Translations under genes and position numbers: made by a program
Shown: piece after piece, positions 25,120-38,943 of the stretch
How the letters are laid out: each line of letters opens with the position of its first letter
How positions within the stretch are numbered: position 1 is the stretch's first letter
Notes under the pieces: generated by a model
What the model saw: only the letters and a program-made list of their open reading frames with translations
Database searches by the model: none
What the model was told of the DNA's origin: nothing
Assembly: GCA_965233585.1 (NCBI GenBank)
Contig: CBDDTI010000746.1
Location: forward strand, 608,001 to 672,000
Length of the DNA: 64,000 bases
From: a bacterium
GTDB lineage: Bacteria > SAR324 > NAC60-12
Direction: 5' to 3'

Positions 25120-25365
25120 GTGATGAGTATGACATTAAATTTTGAAGCAGATCATGCTTTGAAGGTCTCAAAAAATGAAACCCAAAACATGAAGAAAACA
25201 ATTTTAGAAATCAAAGAACAGATTAGACAGAAAAAAACAGAAAAGAAAGATTATGATTTAGTTTCTATGGTGGGTATAGGGAGGCATTGTAGTTCTTTTG
25301 AAAAAGGAACAATGGACGAAATAGATCAGTATATTCGTGAACTAAGGAGCGAATGGAAAGATTAG
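25120..25365 (+). CDS. Putative antitoxin (VapB-like)
   Basis: Small gene overlapping the PIN gene; C-terminal DxYIRELRSEW typical of PIN-associated antitoxins. Confidence 0.7.
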   Translation: MMSMTLNFEADHALKVSKNETQNMKKTILEIKEQIRQKKTEKKDYDLVSMVGIGRHCSSFEKGTMDEIDQYIRELRSEWKD

Positions 25366-25784
25366 AAAATAAATTATATTTTGATGCAAACATTTTTATA
25401 TATGCGATTGAGGGAAATGCGTTTTTGCAACAATCTTTAAAAGATTTCTTAGATTTTGTGTCTCGCCAGATTGAGATAATTGTTACAAGCGAACTGACCC
25501 TTGCAGAATGTCTAGTTTTACCTAGAAGGAATGATAATAAGTATTTACAAAGCATGTATTTAGACGCTCTTATTAAAAATAGAAAAGTTTCTTTAAAAAA
25601 TGTTGATATTGCAACATGGTTATTGGCTTCAGATATAAGGGCAAAATATAACTTTCACCTTCCAGATTCAGTACACATCGCAACAGCCATTTTAAACGAC
25701 TGTTCTTTGATGACAAATGATAAGAAGTTGAAAGGTGTAGAAGGGTTGAAAATTTTCTATTTAGATGACTTCTTACAGTCATAA
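25353..25784 (+). CDS. vapC: PIN-domain toxin (VapC)
   Basis: YFDANIFIY, TSELTLAECL, DSVHIATA, TND. Confidence 0.92.
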   Translation: MERLENKLYFDANIFIYAIEGNAFLQQSLKDFLDFVSRQIEIIVTSELTLAECLVLPRRNDNKYLQSMYLDALIKNRKVSLKNVDIATWLLASDIRAKYNFHLPDSVHIATAILNDCSLMTNDKKLKGVEGLKIFYLDDFLQS

Positions 25785-25810
25785 ACATTCAACTCCCCTC
25801 GTTTTCCTGA

Positions 25811-25837
25811 ATCATTCTGTGCCTGACACAGAATCTC
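25811..25837. repeat. Isolated REP copy (CGTC family variant)
   Basis: atcattctgtg-cctga-cacagaatctc, same frame as the REPs at 29.7 and 35 kb. Confidence 0.7.
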
Positions 25838-26045
25838 AACCAAGTGAGCAATCGGTGTGTTGGACAACAGTCAAAAAATACAACCTCAAACAAGAATCTT
25901 TGGCATGAACCAACTGAAAATAGGTTGATGAGCTAGCACACAAACAAGCCGCTTGAAGTCCCATAAAAACAGGTAAGCAACGCAAAAGACAGATGCTACA
26001 ACCACCACATTTCAAACTCCATTAGTAAAAAAACGAAAAAAAAGC

Positions 26046-26074
26046 TTGTGTAACTTTTAAAAGGTTTTTACAAT
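26046..26074 (+). promoter_or_regulatory. Sigma70-type promoter; predicted TSS about 26080
   Basis: TTGTGT-17 bp-TACAAT. Confidence 0.6.
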
Positions 26075-26083
26075 ATATTGTTT

Positions 26084-26268
26084 TTCTGACTACGTCAAGA
26101 ATGGTCTTGGCAGAGTTCAGGATTAAATGACACATGACTCCTTTTGATCTGGGGCGTCGTGTGTGTTCTTTCATTCGTTTGTCCAGTTTTGTCAGGAATG
26201 GTCTTGGCAGAAATCTGGATTAAATGACGCATGACTCCTTTTGATCTGGGGTGTTGTGTGTGTTCTTT
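26084..26268 (+). ncRNA. Candidate tandem structured 5' leader (two 97-nt-period units, each with two hairpins)
   Basis: 26094-26171 vs 26191-26268 match at 71/78 nt; stems are retained through G-U and compensatory changes. Confidence 0.65.
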
Positions 26269-26294
26269 AACCATAACTAAAATGAGGATAACCT

Positions 26295-29200
26295 ATGAAT
26301 CTTTTAAAAAGATTTGCACAAATTGCTGCGATTGGACTTGCTGGAGGTTTGATTGCCGCATGTAGTAGTGACAGCTCGTCAAGCAGTAGCAGCAGTGACG
26401 ACGACAAAGCCAGCACCCCAGCTACCACAACCGGAGGAGGCGGAAGCACTTCAAAAGGAGGCAGTGACGCCTTCCCAAGAGTCTCCTTTGCCCCAGGTTC
26501 CACTGATGCCAACAACAAATGTAACGGCTTTGGTGGAATCAAAGCAGAAATAGAAGGCTCTAGTCCCCAAGCCTTTGAATACTTCTGTGATTATGACTTC
26601 CAACATAACTTCACTAAAAACCTAAATGGTGGTGGCGACGATTCCCCACTGGAACCTGAAAACATCAATGCCACGTCTGACAAAATCTTCTTCAACTACA
26701 ATGATGAAGGAAAAAACCAAGTCGGGCTTGTTCAAGATGGTGATGCCAACAGCGCCATTGATTTTGATGACCTTAGCGATGGCACAGTCGCTGGTTTTTA
26801 CAGAACAACCGCCAGCTCCGATGATGATAAAAGGCTCTATATCAGGGTTGACGTTGATGGTGCAGGTGCAGAAACAGTAGAAAGTCTTTACTACATTGAT
26901 GAGTCAGTTTCTCCTAGAAAAGCTGTCCCTGTTAGCGACGTTCCTCACATTCAGGCTGCTAATAATAAAGTCTTTGTAGCAGATTCAGGGGTATTTGTTG
27001 TGCAAGCTGATGGAGGTGTTTATTCAGTGGGTGGAACAGATGGAGTCACAGTCACCACTCATACCTACGCTGCTATTACTGGGCTTGACACAGGAGATAT
27101 TGCAGTAGGTGCGGGAACAACAGACCTTGCAAAAGTTCAAGGTGATACTTTGTATCTGCCACTGGACAATGCAGGTGGTGCTGCAACTGCTCTAGACGCA
27201 GATTCTCTCGGCATTTTTACTCATGGAACAGCCGCAGTTGCAACAAGCAGTGATATCAACACAGCATGGGCTGGCGATGAAAATAAAGCCTTGTTTGTCG
27301 CAGACTCAGGAATCTTTGTTGTTTCTACTGATGACGATGTTTACTCATTAGACGGAGCAACATTGACCACTCATACCTATGGCGATATAGGCAGCCTTGC
27401 CTCAGCAGATGTTGCAGTGGGTGCAGGAACAACAGGACTTGCAAAGGTGAAAGGCGATACCTTGTATCTTCCACTAGACGACGCAGGTGGTGCTGCAACT
27501 GCTCTAGACGCAGATTCTCTCGGTGCTTTCAAACATGGAACAGCAGCAGCGGAAGATGTTGCAGATATTACTACTGCATGGGATGGAACTGAAGCCAAAG
27601 CCTTGTTTGTAGCAGGTTCAGGAATCTTTGTTGTTTCTACTGATGACCAAGTTTATTCGGTTGCAGTGAGTGACTCAAATGTTGCCACAGTGACCACTCA
27701 TACCTACGCTGCTATTACTGGGCTTGGCTCTGCAGATATTGCAGTAGGGGCAGGGACAACGGGGCTTGCAAAGGTGCAGGATGACACTTTGTATCTTCCA
27801 TTAGACAATGCAAATGGTGCTGCAACTGCTCAAGATGCGGATTCTCTCGGTATTTTCGCTCATGGAACAGCAGCAGTTGCAACAAGTAGTATCAATACTG
27901 CGTGGGGTGGAGACGAAGATAAAGCCTTATTTGTAGCAGGTTCAGGAATCTTTGTTGTTTCTACTGATGATAATGTCTATTCAGTGGCAGTGGACGACTC
28001 AAATGTTCCAACAGTAACCACCCATACCTACGTTGCTATTACTGGGCTTGGCTCTGCAGATATTGCAGTAGGGGCAGGAACAACAGGGCTTGCAAAGGTG
28101 AAAGGTGATACTTTGTATCTTCCACTAGACAACGCAGGTGGTGCTGCAACTACCCAAGATGCAGACTCACTCGGCATTTTCACTCATGGAACAGCAGCAG
28201 TTGCTACAAACGCCGCTGTCAATACAGCATGGGCTGGAGATGAAGATAAAGACGTTCTCGTTACAGAAAATGGTGTCTTTGTTGTTTCTGATGAGGATGG
28301 CATTTATTACTTCAGACCTGGAAGTTCAGGAGCAAACGTCACAGGCATCATTGATGCGGCAGATGTTGATAAGGATAATTTCAAAGTGGCAAAGGCAGCC
28401 AAAGGAGCATTAAGCAACTACGCTTTTCACGAAAGTGCAATGATTCTTGGGACTAACCCTGCAGTTGCTTTGAATGAAATCGCCATCTCTGCTGACCAAT
28501 TTGTTCAAACCACCAACGGCAACACTTACTTCACAATCAATGGAAACTTTGACACAGGTCTTTATGCTCATGGAGTGACTGACACAATAGGCATCAGACC
28601 AGCAGTCACAGGCTCTGCAATCAATGCAACCGCAGTCGCTGCCAACGGCAATGATGTTTACTTCTCCACAGCAGATAACTTGTTCAGTTTCAGTGCAATC
28701 GCAACGACTCATGGTGGTTCCGTAACTGACGTCAGCGTCATCTCTGCTCCAACAACGACAACAAGTTCTGCTGTTGATAAAAACAAAAACCTTGAAAAAT
28801 TGGTCTTTGTAGAAGACCAGCTTTATGCACTCAAGAGCAATAAGGTTTACGCATTGAATGACACAGGTGAACTGGATGAAGTACAAACTGATGACGAAAC
28901 TCCAGCAAGTATCTCTGTCAATTCTATCCATCAAGTTGGAGACCAGTTGATTGCAGTGGGGTCAAGTAACGTGTATTCCATTTCTGGCGACGACCCAGCC
29001 GCAACAGAAATTGAAAACACGACTGGAGACACTCCAGCCTCTCTCACTGGCGCAAAATGGGTCGCTGTTGCAGGAGATGTGTTGTTTTTCAATACTGGCG
29101 ATAACAATCTCTGGTTAACTCAAGGTGATTCAGACTCTACCAAACCAGTGAGGAGAAATGGCAATAACGTGACGTGGAATTTAACTGCACAAGATAACAA

Positions 29201-29567
29201 AGCAGTCCAGTCTGGCGATGACTACTACACTCTTTGGAATGGCTTCTTGTATTGGGTGAACGAAAGCACAGGAGTTGCTGTAAGAGCCTCTACAACGAAT
29301 AGGGAGCTTGGCACAGAATCTGTTCAAGGACTCATAGCACTCAAAGTAGGTGATGCCGATGCGATTGCTATCACGACCAGATCAGGTGCTGTTAAAGTCT
29401 TGGTTGGTTGGAAAGGCAAACCAAACAATAAGTTTGTCAATGTGAATACTGGTGGAACTTGGAACACTGCCAAGCCATACTTTGTTGGTGATAGACTTTA
29501 CTTCACAGGCAAAAATGGTCTAGGCATTGAATGGTATTACTTGCAAAAAACGATACCATCTAATTAG
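26295..29567 (+). CDS. 1090-aa acidic surface lipoprotein with four 104-109-aa repeats (S-layer/adhesin-like)
   Basis: Lipobox LIAAC, Ser/Thr linker, repeats, beta-rich propeller-like C-terminus; GAGGA RBS. Confidence 0.8.
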   Translation: MNLLKRFAQIAAIGLAGGLIAACSSDSSSSSSSSDDDKASTPATTTGGGGSTSKGGSDAFPRVSFAPGSTDANNKCNGFGGIKAEIEGSSPQAFEYFCDYDFQHNFTKNLNGGGDDSPLEPENINATSDKIFFNYNDEGKNQVGLVQDGDANSAIDFDDLSDGTVAGFYRTTASSDDDKRLYIRVDVDGAGAETVESLYYIDESVSPRKAVPVSDVPHIQAANNKVFVADSGVFVVQADGGVYSVGGTDGVTVTTHTYAAITGLDTGDIAVGAGTTDLAKVQGDTLYLPLDNAGGAATALDADSLGIFTHGTAAVATSSDINTAWAGDENKALFVADSGIFVVSTDDDVYSLDGATLTTHTYGDIGSLASADVAVGAGTTGLAKVKGDTLYLPLDDAGGAATALDADSLGAFKHGTAAAEDVADITTAWDGTEAKALFVAGSGIFVVSTDDQVYSVAVSDSNVATVTTHTYAAITGLGSADIAVGAGTTGLAKVQDDTLYLPLDNANGAATAQDADSLGIFAHGTAAVATSSINTAWGGDEDKALFVAGSGIFVVSTDDNVYSVAVDDSNVPTVTTHTYVAITGLGSADIAVGAGTTGLAKVKGDTLYLPLDNAGGAATTQDADSLGIFTHGTAAVATNAAVNTAWAGDEDKDVLVTENGVFVVSDEDGIYYFRPGSSGANVTGIIDAADVDKDNFKVAKAAKGALSNYAFHESAMILGTNPAVALNEIAISADQFVQTTNGNTYFTINGNFDTGLYAHGVTDTIGIRPAVTGSAINATAVAANGNDVYFSTADNLFSFSAIATTHGGSVTDVSVISAPTTTTSSAVDKNKNLEKLVFVEDQLYALKSNKVYALNDTGELDEVQTDDETPASISVNSIHQVGDQLIAVGSSNVYSISGDDPAATEIENTTGDTPASLTGAKWVAVAGDVLFFNTGDNNLWLTQGDSDSTKPVRRNGNNVTWNLTAQDNKAVQSGDDYYTLWNGFLYWVNESTGVAVRASTTNRELGTESVQGLIALKVGDADAIAITTRSGAVKVLVGWKGKPNNKFVNVNTGGTWNTAKPYFVGDRLYFTGKNGLGIEWYYLQKTIPSN
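27054..28310 (+). repeat. Four intragenic tandem repeats
   Basis: acc-acY-catacctaY anchors at 27054, 27366, 27693 and 28017 (periods 312, 327, 324 bp). Confidence 0.92.
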
Positions 29568-29661: not shown

Positions 29662-29684
29662 CACGTCATTGTCGACGTGTCTAA

Positions 29685-29880
29685 GTCATTGCGGGACCTG
29701 ACCCGCAATCTCCCTCGTCTTCTTCCCAACAACGCCTTTTTTTGAGATTCCGCATCAAGTGCGGAATGACTGAGAGGTTTTGTAGGCGTGTCTTTCCGTC
29801 ATTGCTTACCTTGCCCCGCAATCTCCCTTGTCTTTTTCTCAACAACTCCTTTTTTTGAGATTCCGTGTTCCCCCGTCATT
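29685..29880. repeat. CGTC-type REP doublets (REPIN-like)
   Basis: gtcattgcgggacctgacccgcaatctc - spacer - gagattccgcatcaagtgcggaatgac; second degenerate doublet from 29798. Confidence 0.88.
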
Positions 29881-31068: not shown

Positions 31069-34000
31069 ATGACAGTATCCTTTGTGTGGAGTGTTGTTTT
31101 TTTGTTGGTTTTTAATTTTTCTTCATCTTGTTCAATTTTGTTTAAGCAGAAAAAGAAACACAAGCACAAGGGGGTCAATGTTTGCAGATTCCCAAAACAC
31201 AGACGCAAGGCACAGGCAACCTTGCCATCTTCAACTCACTAGATGAAGATGTGCTGCTGTCGTATTCCAGCAGTCTGAATGCTGATGATGTGATGGCTGT
31301 CATTGGTGGCAAGCAAAATGGCGTGAAGGTGGACATTTCAAAACGCACCTCTTCCACGGTCATGGTGTTTGGATTCAAAATGCCAGCAGTCAAGGACTAT
31401 CTGAAAGCAGATTGCGATGAGACCAAGATGCCAACAGCGTTTGTGCAAAGTGAGTTCATTCCAACAGCCGAATCTAGTTTTGTGCTGGAAGCCAGCGAGG
31501 TGAAACAAGACTACGGGACATTGCTGATATTCAACAAACGTTCTGGACTGGTGTCTATTTTTCAAGGCAGTTCAAGGAACAAGCAAATCGGAGTGGTTCA
31601 GGCTGGTCAGTCTAACTATCGGATTCAAATCCCCATCGGCTACAAACAACTCGTGTTTTACCTACACAACCCATCAGGAGGCATTGACTTTACAAAACCT
31701 GTCTTTTCCAAAAATCTGGTCTTTAACAAAGGAGACACTAAACTGGTATTCATTCCCAACAAGACCATTTTCAATGGTGCGAAGATCAAGTTTCTCAATG
31801 CCTCTGCCCAAGATGTGATGCTGATGGTGAGAAAGAGTGATAGCCCGTTGTCTAATATAGAGTGCAGTTGTGAGGTCGTTGGCAAACAATCGGATAAACC
31901 TGTGATGATTCTGGTGCAAGACAAGTATTATGCTGATGACTTCTTCTTTTCTGTCATCAATGCAGAGACAGGTGAGACCTTGACAGAGAGTCAACCCTTT
32001 CAGTTAGATAAAAAAACGAACGCCAGTTTTAAGCTACAAACAGATTTGACTCTGAAGAAGACAGATGTGGGCAAGGGTCAAGTTGTTGTGCCAAATGAAA
32101 AACCCAGCACGCCAAGTGAAGTGAAAACGAGCGAGGTCAAAGCCAGCAGTGTCAAAGTCAGTTGGTCGCCTTCAGCAGATTCTGATGGTGAAGTGGCAGG
32201 TTATGAAGTCTCTTACAAGACAAGTAGCGGGTCATGGACTGGCACACAAACCACCACTCAAACCAGTTTGATTGTGTCAGGATTACAGCCTGAGACCAGC
32301 TACACTTTCCGTGTTCGTGCCAAAGATGATGAGGGAGACTGGAGTGCTTATGAAGAAAGCCAACCTGTCAAGACGCCTGAAGCTGCCAATCAACCACCCA
32401 GCAAACCTAGCACCATCAGCACCAGCCAAGTCACTGCGAGTAGTATCAAGGTCTCATGGTCTGCTGCCACAGACTCTGACGGAAGTATTGCAGGCTATGA
32501 AATCTCTTACAAATCAGGCAATAATGTTTTTTGGACAGGAATCAGCACGACAGCCAGCACGACTTACAGCTTCAATCAATTACAACCTGCCACCAGCTAC
32601 ACCTTCCGTGTTCGTGCCAAAGATGATGACGGAGATTGGAGTCCTTACCAGACAAGCACTGCTGTCAGCACTGCACCCAATGCACCAACTGCGCTTGCTG
32701 TCTCTGCTAGAAGCCTGACTTTTATGATGACTTCAGGCAGCAGCTATGAATGCTCCAAAGATGCTGGCACAACCAAAACCAACTGCAACAGCCCCTTTAG
32801 TTTTGGCGATGATGCCATTGCCAAAGACAAGCTCTGCGTCCGTGTCAAAGCATCAGGCAATACGCCTGCTTCTGATTGGAGTTGCTACAGCCAAGCCATT
32901 AATCAACCACCAAGCAAACCCAGCAACATCAGCACCAGTCAAGTCACTGGCAGCAGCATCACGGTCTCATGGACTGCTTCCACTGATTCTGATGGAAGCA
33001 TTGCAGGCTATGAAGTCTCTTACAAAGAAGAAAGTGGCACATGGACAGGCACACAAACCACCACACAAACCACTTATACTTTCAGCAACCTCACTTGGGT
33101 AACTTCTTACACTTTCAGAGTCAAATCAAAGGATAATGATGGAGAATACAGCTCTTATACAACTAGCTCTTCAGTCAAAACAAAATCAGACAAAACTTTC
33201 GGTGGAAGCGACAGGGACGGTGCTAATTCTATCATTCAAACGTCTGATGGCGGATATGTTGTTGCTGGTTACACTAAAAGTAAAGGAGCAGGTGATAGAG
33301 ATTGGCATATCATCAAATTAAATTCTACTGGCAACCAAGTCTGGGACAAAACCTTCGGTGGAAGTCATGATGACTATGCTAATTCTATCATTCAAACGTC
33401 TGATGGCGGATATGTTGTTGTTGGAATTAAGACTCTCTCAAATGGTAGTTCTTGGTATAATTCTTCTTGGATCATCAAATTAAATTCTAGTGGCAATCAA
33501 GTCTGGGATAAAATTTTTAGGTCTTCAACATTTTGGAGTCTAGGCGGAAATGTCTATACTTATTCCGTAGTTCAAACATCTGATAGCGGATATGTTTTGG
33601 GTGTGAATAGAAATCTTATCAAATTAAATTCTAATGGTAACAAAGTTTGGGATAAACCCTTTCATCGCAGCAGGCTTGACACAGCTAGCTCCATCATTCA
33701 AACGTCCGATGGCAGATATGTTGTTGCTGGATATACACTTACTGGTAATAGTTATAATGTGTATATTGCCAATTTAAGTTCTTCTGGAAGACTAAGATGG
33801 CATAGAAACTTTGGTGGAAGTAACGATGATGGTGCTGATTCTATCATTCAAACGTCTGATGGCGGATATGTTGTTGCTGGTTACACTAAAAGTAAAGGAG
33901 CAGGAGATAGTGATGCTTGGATCATCAAATTAAATTCTAATGGTAACAAGGTCTGGGATAAAACCTTCGGTGGAAGCGACAGGGACGGTGCTAATTCTAT

Positions 34001-34106
34001 CATTCAAACGTCTGATGGCGGATATGTTGTTGCTGGTTACACTAAAAGTAAAGGAGCAGGAGATAGTGATGTTTGGCTCATCAAATTAGATGCCAATGGA
34101 AATTAG
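31069..34106 (+). pseudogene. Surface (lipo)protein with 3 FN3 domains and C-terminal beta-propeller repeats; signal peptide out of frame with the body (31182-34106)
   Basis: GAGGAG RBS, ATG 31069, hydrophobic leader ending SSSC in one frame; the body frame is open from 31146; FN3 repeats; TFGGS..D...SIIQTSDGGYVVAG repeats. Confidence 0.65.
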
Positions 34107-38867: not shown

Positions 38868-38943
38868 GCTCCTGTAGTTTAATCGGATAAAACGGTGGTT
38901 TCCTAAACCGCAGTTTGGGGTTCAATTCCCTACGGGAGCGCCA
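38868..38943 (+). tRNA. tRNA-Arg(CCT)
   Basis: Acceptor GCTCCTG/CGGGAGC, anticodon arm GTGGT-TTCCTAA-ACCGC, T arm GGTTCAATTCC, encoded CCA. Confidence 0.95.

Follow-up and report, generated by a model that had tools for sequence, protein, structure and literature searches.

A tandem two-hairpin element in the putative 5' leader of an orphan lipoprotein gene of an uncultured SAR324 bacterium

The window considered here is a stretch of 64,000 nucleotides (nt) from a bacterium of the SAR324 lineage (NAC60-12; assembly GCA_965233585.1, contig CBDDTI010000746.1, positions 608,001 to 672,000); positions are counted within this window unless another contig is named. A gap of 510 nt between a PIN-domain gene (25353-25784) and an open reading frame (ORF) at 26295-29567, which encodes a large lipoprotein, houses two consecutive copies of a unit that is predicted to fold into two hairpins, P1 and P2. 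The analysis supports the existence of a sense-strand, non-coding element of two hairpins repeated in tandem, which lies downstream of the best promoter-like site and upstream of the ribosome-binding site. As to its function, the tentative reading, held with somewhat less than even confidence, is that the two units form a structured leader, constitutive in action, which shields the mRNA in the manner of the ompA 5' untranslated region (UTR). The features that this argument requires are as follows.

26027..26043, + strand: A-rich tract, read from the sequence, adjoining the -35-like hexamer on its upstream side
26046..26074, + strand: promoter-like site TTGTGT-17-TACAAT, 8/12 to the sigma-70 consensus, predicted start at approx. 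26080
26080..26294, + strand: putative untranslated leader of 215 nt (T 78, G 53, A 48, C 36)
26094..26171, + strand: repeat core, copy 1, 78 nt
26191..26268, + strand: repeat core, copy 2, 78 nt, identical to copy 1 at 71 of 78 positions
26262..26289, + strand: A/U-rich stretch between P2 of unit 2 and the ATG, containing the Shine-Dalgarno (SD) sequence
26295..29567, + strand: orphan lipoprotein gene, 1090 amino acids (aa); the frame has no earlier start codon than 26295

The two cores are 91% identical, are spaced 97 nt from start to start, and align without gaps over the full 97-99-nt units, which confirms the tandem repeat of 97-nt period that the first-pass annotation had described at 26094-26171 and 26191-26268. 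Tandem Repeats Finder skips the pair, with 0 rows in 25500-27000 and none at the locus in a run on the whole assembly; despite this silence, the repeat is real and unambiguous in the gapless alignment. In particular, the loops AUGG and UUGAUCU and the segment GGAUUAAAUGAC are identical in both units. The two-unit form is not an assembly artefact because contigs from four DNA sequencing runs span the leader without a single difference, indel, or joint, although these runs come from two samples of one study, are possibly the source data of the assembly, and, as contigs, hide rare variants. BLAST of the same assembly found no other copy of the units, and a covariance model made from both returned them at 122.7 and 120.4 bits and the next candidate at 22.8 bits (E 0.18); both searches bear out the premise that the units are not a dispersed repeat. 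A coding role was considered and rejected. Each unit contains two mini-ORFs recognized by eye (nine codons from the ATG of the P1 loop, followed by six from an ATGA overlap), neither of which has an SD sequence; moreover, the period of 97 is not a multiple of 3, and four of the six differences within the candidate frames alter a residue.

Each unit is predicted to fold alone into two hairpins, an extended P1 and a bulged P2. The hairpins and the folding energies, the latter with z scores and the number of shuffled sequences that fold as well, are listed below.

26084..26122, + strand: P1 of unit 1; inner stem of 7 bp capped by the loop AUGG, then a 2x2 internal loop and a once-bulged outer helix of 8 bp
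26130..26164, + strand: P2 of unit 1, 9 bp, a bulge, and 4 bp closed by the loop UUGAUCU; -17.5 kcal/mol, z -4.01, 0/200 shuffles
26176..26226, + strand: P1 of unit 2, an almost continuous 22-bp hairpin in which the spacer pairs with the "linker"
26227..26261, + strand: P2 of unit 2; -14.4 kcal/mol, z -3.97, 0/200 shuffles
Unit 1: -32.5 kcal/mol, z -3.53, 1/200 shuffles as good
Unit 2: -33.8 kcal/mol, z -4.46, 0/200 shuffles as good
Whole leader, + strand: -75.0 kcal/mol, z -5.35, 0/200 shuffles as good
Whole leader, - strand: -40.2 kcal/mol, z -0.88, 38/200 shuffles as good

The hairpins are predicted as they had been drawn earlier, with P1 written as GUCARGA-AUGG-UCUUGGC plus an outer closing helix and P2 as ACRCAUGAC, a U bulge, CCUU, the loop UUGAUCU, GGGG, a Y bulge, and GUYGUGUGU. 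The description of the segment between them as an invariant linker stands for its sequence, which is the same in both units, but not for its structure: it is predicted to be single-stranded in unit 1 only and pairs with the spacer in unit 2. P1 of unit 1 would begin 4 nt past the predicted start. The contrast between strands extends to the separate units, which reach -32.5 and -36.5 kcal/mol on the + strand versus -19.6 and -11.8 kcal/mol on the - strand. The fold relies on many G.U pairs, including some that are new in unit 2, and because such pairs are absent on the other strand and in duplex DNA, the predicted structure is a property of the sense transcript and not of the DNA.

In the minimum-energy fold of the whole leader, the two P2 hairpins swap arms, and their self-complementary GAUC loops pair together; an arm swap would be expected in any tandem hairpin repeat, and the local hairpins should form first during transcription. 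The SD sequence GAGGA is located at 26284-26288, 6 nt ahead of the ATG. In the same fold, GUUCUU (26262-26267) can pair with GAGGAU (26284-26289) in a weak 6-bp helix that includes three G.U pairs, and the mean unpaired probability is 0.36 for the SD and 0.63 for 26270-26300. According to the model, the SD is thus weakly and partly paired, and its region is not strongly occluded. The 5' side of P2 (UGACUCCUUUUGA, anti-SD-like; 26135-26147 and 26232-26244) is also complementary at 12 of 13 positions to an SD-like sequence, AAAGGAGG, within the coding sequence (CDS; 26451-26463). This complementarity was given no weight, as approx. 0.15 such matches would occur in the region by chance according to a rough estimate.

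The promoter TTGTGT-17-TACAAT proposed in the first-pass annotation was found at 26046-26074 with the A-rich tract upstream of it, but it scores only 8/12 and thus lies under the standard threshold. The standard scan, which needs 9/12, called no + strand promoter site in 25300-26700; a relaxed scan that took 8/12 returned three + strand sites at this score, at 26046-26074, 26050-26079, and 26254-26283. The third of these, TTGTGT-18-TAAAAT, is located downstream of the repeats. The site at 26046-26074 is the only upstream promoter-like site with an A-tract, and the tract (26027-26043) may be UP-element-like, judging from its composition. A transcription start near 26080 is therefore plausible as a reading of the sequence.

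If the real start were located downstream, for example at the site 26254-26283, or far upstream, the repeats might act at the level of DNA, as duplicated protein-binding sequences (for instance an operator or a site of the phase-variation type), or they might lack any role. We consider this very improbable. The equal score of TTGTGT-18-TAAAAT speaks for it, as do a 9/12 site on the - strand (TTGACG-17-TATTGT) that overlaps the region at 26098-26070 and the occurrence of one GATC per unit, 97 bp apart. However, a transcript from 26254-26283 would start approx. 5 nt before the ATG and would lack the SD. The inverted repeats rely on G.U pairs and are thus poor DNA palindromes, and the - strand folds no better than chance. 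Moreover, one GATC per 78-nt unit is unremarkable, this tetranucleotide being under-represented assembly-wide, and the contigs of the four runs hold no copy-number variant. The specific idea of a Dam/GATC function was rejected on the same count (28388 GATC observed in the assembly vs 43101 expected from base composition). The - strand site overlaps the -10 region of the + strand site and the 5' arm of P1; no convincing gene is found on the - strand downstream of it.

The differences between the units are informative about whether the predicted pairing has been maintained. Across 97 alignment columns, 17 differences were counted. Among the 27 pairs common to both predicted folds (indexed by their 3' column), two have changed on both sides, four have changed on one side with pairing kept, and none is broken, in agreement with the earlier claim that the differences between the copies are compatible with pairing. 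One of the two-sided changes, C-G to U-A at columns 13/38, had been absent from that account. The other, the U-A to A-U compensatory swap to which it had drawn attention, is real and belongs to the outer helix (column 42), but it holds only if the 5' strand is shifted in register by 1 nt. Each of the four one-sided stem changes is a transition that creates or removes a G.U pair, and in unit 2 the internal loop of P1 is closed by two more changes. Divergence is also uneven, amounting to 7 of 78 positions in the core and 8 of 16 in the 5' flank. In the P1 outer helix, this diverged flank forms the 5' strand, and three of the seven core changes lie on the strand with which it pairs. When the replacements were simulated at random, the energy of the other unit was reached in 44/3000 and 140/3000 cases with the observed positions and in 12/3000 and 70/3000 cases with random positions; the divergence is thus pairing-preserving at the 0.4-4.7% level. 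An exchange of flanks gave a divided answer: relative to native values of -15.0 (unit 1) and -20.7 kcal/mol, the chimera of flank 1 and core 2 reached -10.2 kcal/mol, and that of flank 2 and core 1 reached -15.9 kcal/mol.

These data bear on the main alternative, namely that the element is a neutral by-product, a 97-nt slippage duplication in a repeat-prone genome that is tolerated as harmless to expression. The hairpins would then be incidental, or only the ancestral single copy would matter, and the cores would be alike through youth or gene conversion. We regard this explanation as unlikely, while granting it a substantial share of the probability. The one-sided stem changes are of a common mutation type, and the chimera of flank 2 and core 1 folds as well as the native unit; both observations are what neutrality would allow. 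The very uneven divergence, the matching of clustered flank changes on the partner strand with two two-sided changes and no broken pair, and the simulated frequencies all argue against it. In addition, the new pairs include G.U, which speaks against a purely DNA-level, template-switch origin.

The genomic background of tandem arrays was examined in the same light. The assembly comprises 12.0 Mb in 747 contigs, of which four exceed 200 kb (2.78 Mb in total), and the remaining 743 (9.2 of 12.0 Mb) carry most of the tandem arrays. Tandem Repeats Finder reported 7706 rows, which include 444 non-overlapping arrays with a period of 60-149 and fewer than 3 copies; 250 of these are intergenic-like, 233 on small contigs and 17 on the four large ones. 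This abundance of short arrays favors the neutral explanation, as does the fact that 10-20% of the arrays examined fold as well as the units or pass the same divergence test. In a sample of 110 intergenic-like two-copy arrays, 21 had a best-strand z of -3.5 or lower and 11 of -4.5 or lower; the leader units scored -4.1 and -5.0 with the same script. On the four largest contigs, 3 of 17 arrays reached z <= -3.5, and 3 of 30 background arrays, taken on one strand only, passed the divergence test in both directions. The element therefore belongs to the upper tenth to fifth of the genomic background, which makes it notable but not unique. It differs from most of the large-contig arrays in belonging to no dispersed family: 12 of those 17 arrays are members of families with 33-163 other copies, and one of the five singletons reached z <= -3.5. 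This array, at C295:129582 (period 81, 2.7 copies), is the only other strong-fold singleton intergenic array noted for the large contigs and has z scores of -3.76 and -4.73 on the two strands.

Searches for known families and for relatives of the element gave uniformly negative results. With Rfam 15, no family matched within 25700-26700 at E <= 10 apart from a 10-bit chance match to SCARNA7 (25711-25792), and at gathering thresholds, the whole window yielded only a tRNA (38868-38940). The statement that the units contain no known riboswitch consensus has thus been upheld by an Rfam scan. In 40 relatives, the best non-self BLAST match covered 21 nt at E 0.0235, which is at chance level, and in 63 other genomes of the order, the covariance model found nothing credible (best non-self score 22.8 bits). 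Three model hits (L044, L045, and L047) were rejected because they lie inside long ORFs (333, 841+, and 896+ aa), one of them on the opposite strand; L046 and the hits L041-L043 from the same assembly (17.5-22.8 bits) were judged by alignments or scores alone. A structure-aware pattern, in which loops and linker were fixed and stems free, had 0 matches in genome_contigs and 0 in viral_contigs, and two contiguous patterns, one run in each of these collections, also had 0 matches; these collection scans may omit records very near the genome of the window. The structure-aware pattern also had a single metagenome match (L048), which was dismissed as chance, being on a high-GC contig, devoid of the stems, and unscored by the model. 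Sets of TAACTGA direct repeats, which are known from giant sulfur bacteria according to PMC4679880, were also sought as a candidate, and 0 sets were found in the assembly.

The first-pass annotation had offered three options, an unclassified tandem riboswitch, a protein-binding leader, or an mRNA stabilizer. The first of these would make the element a regulated switch, in which identical modules cooperatively bind a trans-acting factor (a protein, a small RNA, or a small ligand) and binding controls either access to the SD or read-through at P2, which would act as a weak terminator followed by the tail GUUCUUU. A switch of this kind appears improbable. The tandem layout with identical loops (AUGG and UUGAUCU) and identical GGAUUAAAUGAC segments would suit it, as would the U-rich tail after P2 (5 T in the first 8 nt), the weak pairing of GUUCUU after unit 2 with the SD, and the mutual pairing of the GAUC-containing P2 loops in the whole-leader fold. 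In its most novel form, the modules would be a lineage-specific cis-regulatory RNA of a new class, whose partner, be it a ligand, a small RNA, or a dimeric protein that binds RNA, would read both loops and GGAUUAAAUGAC in both units and thus set lipoprotein expression cooperatively; this proposal is likewise given little probability. Such recognition may be aided by contact between the GAUC loops of the two P2 hairpins.

The analysis does not support the tandem riboswitch itself: the units are plain hairpins that lack a junction of several helices, no expression platform with mutually exclusive states was found, and neither the 63 genomes nor the collection scans contain a homologue. Each unit consists of two simple hairpins and has no pocket-like conserved core, no pairing that would compete with P2 was seen within a unit by eye, and the absence of Rfam matches and of conservation outside this genome also speaks against a switch. 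P2 is bulged and GC-poor; the terminator scan called no + strand terminator-like site in 25300-26700, and the tail GUUCUUU contains at most 3 consecutive U. A leader bound by CsrA was rejected as well, although a csrA gene does exist. The GGA motifs number 4 in 215 nt, which is near chance by a rough composition estimate, and the three that are not part of the SD are located in predicted stems and not in hairpin loops.

The lipoprotein has a signal peptide with the lipobox LIAAC, a Ser-rich linker, and approximately four internal repeats of 108 aa; at the DNA level, the CDS contains a tandem repeat of 324 nt x 3.7 (27048-28251, 78% matches). Some contigs from the sequencing runs align to part of this CDS repeat with 41-48 differences; their source may be paralogues or other units of the repeat. 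Pfam, NCBIfam, and PDB sequence searches gave no match to the protein, the ESM Atlas gave nothing usable, and a near-length search of a set of 5.8 billion proteins returned only the protein itself among 8000 scored candidates. An orthologue was found in 0 of the 63 other genomes of the order. The same assembly encodes one full-length paralogue with 36% identity (C745:289910-293152), as well as three genes (1205-1269 aa) that match only over the first 85 residues (C747:819149-819403, C747:368556-368810, and C745:127920-128174). These three share only the signal peptide MNLLKRFAQI... and the region just 5' of the ATG, and their leaders are nearly identical to one another. The two-unit covariance model finds no motif upstream of any of the four paralogues. 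The 36% paralogue nevertheless has an unrelated putative leader of approx. 190 nt (L035:4744-4933, - strand), the promoter of which was chosen by eye. This leader reaches -53.2 kcal/mol (z -3.90, 0/200 shuffles as good) and is predicted to form a long 5'-proximal hairpin followed by a second hairpin.

Among the three earlier options, the branch that combines an mRNA stabilizer with a protein-binding leader fits these observations best, and the interpretation tentatively preferred here is a constitutive, mRNA-protecting leader. Both units would lie within the 5' untranslated leader that precedes the lipoprotein coding sequence in the mRNA and would exert their effect as RNA. The transcript would carry four stable hairpins, the first of them approx. 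4 nt from the 5' end, with an open A/U-rich stretch and a good SD after the last. The 5'-proximal stem-loop, together with the other hairpins, would hinder both 5'-end-dependent and internal attack by nucleases of the RNase E type, and the structured, C-poor leader (36 C in 215 nt) would give Rho little to load on. The outcome would be a long-lived, well-translated message of 3.3 kb. The second unit would have been born by a 97-nt tandem duplication and then kept foldable. Passages of PMC7509114 treat protective 5' UTR stem-loops as established for ompA, recA, and vacA.

In support of a protective leader, the units fill the space from the promoter-like site with its A-tract (26027-26074) to the SD and ATG. 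The fold is specific to the sense strand (z -5.35 vs -0.88), the divergence is uneven and preserves pairing, and the leader of the 36% paralogue, unrelated in sequence, also begins with a long hairpin. Two genes of the RNase E/G family are present on the large contigs of the assembly. Several points weigh against this interpretation. The promoter scores just 8/12, and an equal-scoring site (26254-26283) sits 3' of the repeats; the start at approx. 26080 and transcription of the leader are predictions, as is the stabilizing effect, and an abundant lipoprotein is assumed. The background arrays described above include some that fold or diverge comparably, and the exchange of flanks destabilizes one chimera only. 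Moreover, the element appears to be confined to one genome, with neither the 63 genomes nor the collection scans yielding a homologue of the RNA or the protein, a distribution that the neutral explanation would accommodate. Because no homologue was found, the apparent covariation and selection are drawn from two paralogous copies and not from a family, and the likeness of the cores could also be maintained by gene conversion from one copy to the other.

The surroundings of the leader include further elements that are relevant to the organization of the locus.

25353..25784: PIN-domain (VapC-like) gene
25812..25839, + strand: copy of a REP-like dispersed hairpin, 3' of the PIN-domain gene; the assembly has 11 further matches to it (E <= 0.01)

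The PIN-domain gene is preceded by an overlapping ORF of 81 aa without a Pfam match (25120-25784 for both), and the pair has what looks like the layout of a toxin-antitoxin module. The REP-like hairpin at 25812-25839 may separate two transcription units, and its position is consistent with the lipoprotein gene being a transcription unit of its own. The family to which it belongs, with cores such as cattctg...cagaatctcaa and gagattgcgggtcaagcccgcaatgac, flanks the lipoprotein gene on both sides (25812-25839 and approx. 29680-29870) and also fills the upstream regions of the three paralogous lipoprotein genes (L036-L038); the 11 other matches refer to the 28-nt copy, and the downstream and paralogue-upstream copies were assigned by eye. 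The next large gene (31182-34106) encodes a protein of 974 aa that combines three fibronectin type III domains with a repeat of the beta-propeller type, and this gene suggests a cluster of surface-protein genes.

If the units do stabilize the message, they add another large envelope-protein mRNA with a hairpin-rich protective leader, from a poorly studied uncultured lineage, and the duplicated, still foldable module would be a small natural experiment on the dosage of 5' UTR structure. That the 36% paralogue has an unrelated yet equally structured leader hints at selection on the property and not on the sequence. The practical value would be that of a portable leader part with 0, 1, or 2 units; no new field would be opened. 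If the units were instead a regulated switch, they would represent a new, very narrowly distributed RNA class, which the present evidence does not favor.

Four known systems invite comparison. With the intergenic minisatellites or variable-number tandem repeats (VNTRs) and the REP-like hairpins of the assembly, the element shares its form, an intergenic head-to-tail duplication of approx. 100 nt, and some of those arrays also fold well. It differs from them in having no dispersed copies, in its position exactly between a promoter-like site and an SD on the sense strand, and in its two-sided pair changes. Tandem riboswitches (glycine, thiamine pyrophosphate (TPP), T-box) likewise have a leader in which one structured unit is followed by a similar second one; however, theirs are conserved multi-helix aptamers that occur in many species, are represented by Rfam models, and act through an expression platform, whereas the units described here are plain hairpins with none of these properties. 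Stabilizing leaders also exist before S-layer genes and other genes for abundant surface proteins. The leader of the lipoprotein gene resembles them as a long, highly structured 5' leader of an envelope protein gene, although it has no sequence or structural homology to them and the abundance of its product is only assumed.

The closest parallel is the ompA 5' UTR of E. coli. This leader is reportedly 133 nt long with the layout hp1/ss1/hp2/ss2 (hairpins, hp, alternating with single-stranded segments, ss), and Chen (1991), Emory (1992), and Arnold (1998) are said to have described it as an mRNA stabilizer with a 5'-terminal stem-loop. The two leaders are unrelated in sequence, the hairpin-spacer-hairpin module occurs twice here, and the start and the half-life effect are, in the present case, predictions. 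What they have in common is a long leader ahead of a gene for an outer-membrane-type protein, a hairpin near the (here predicted) 5' end, and then a single-stranded A/U-rich segment, a second hairpin, and a ribosome-binding site that is predicted here to be partly open, in an organism that has an enzyme of the RNase E family.

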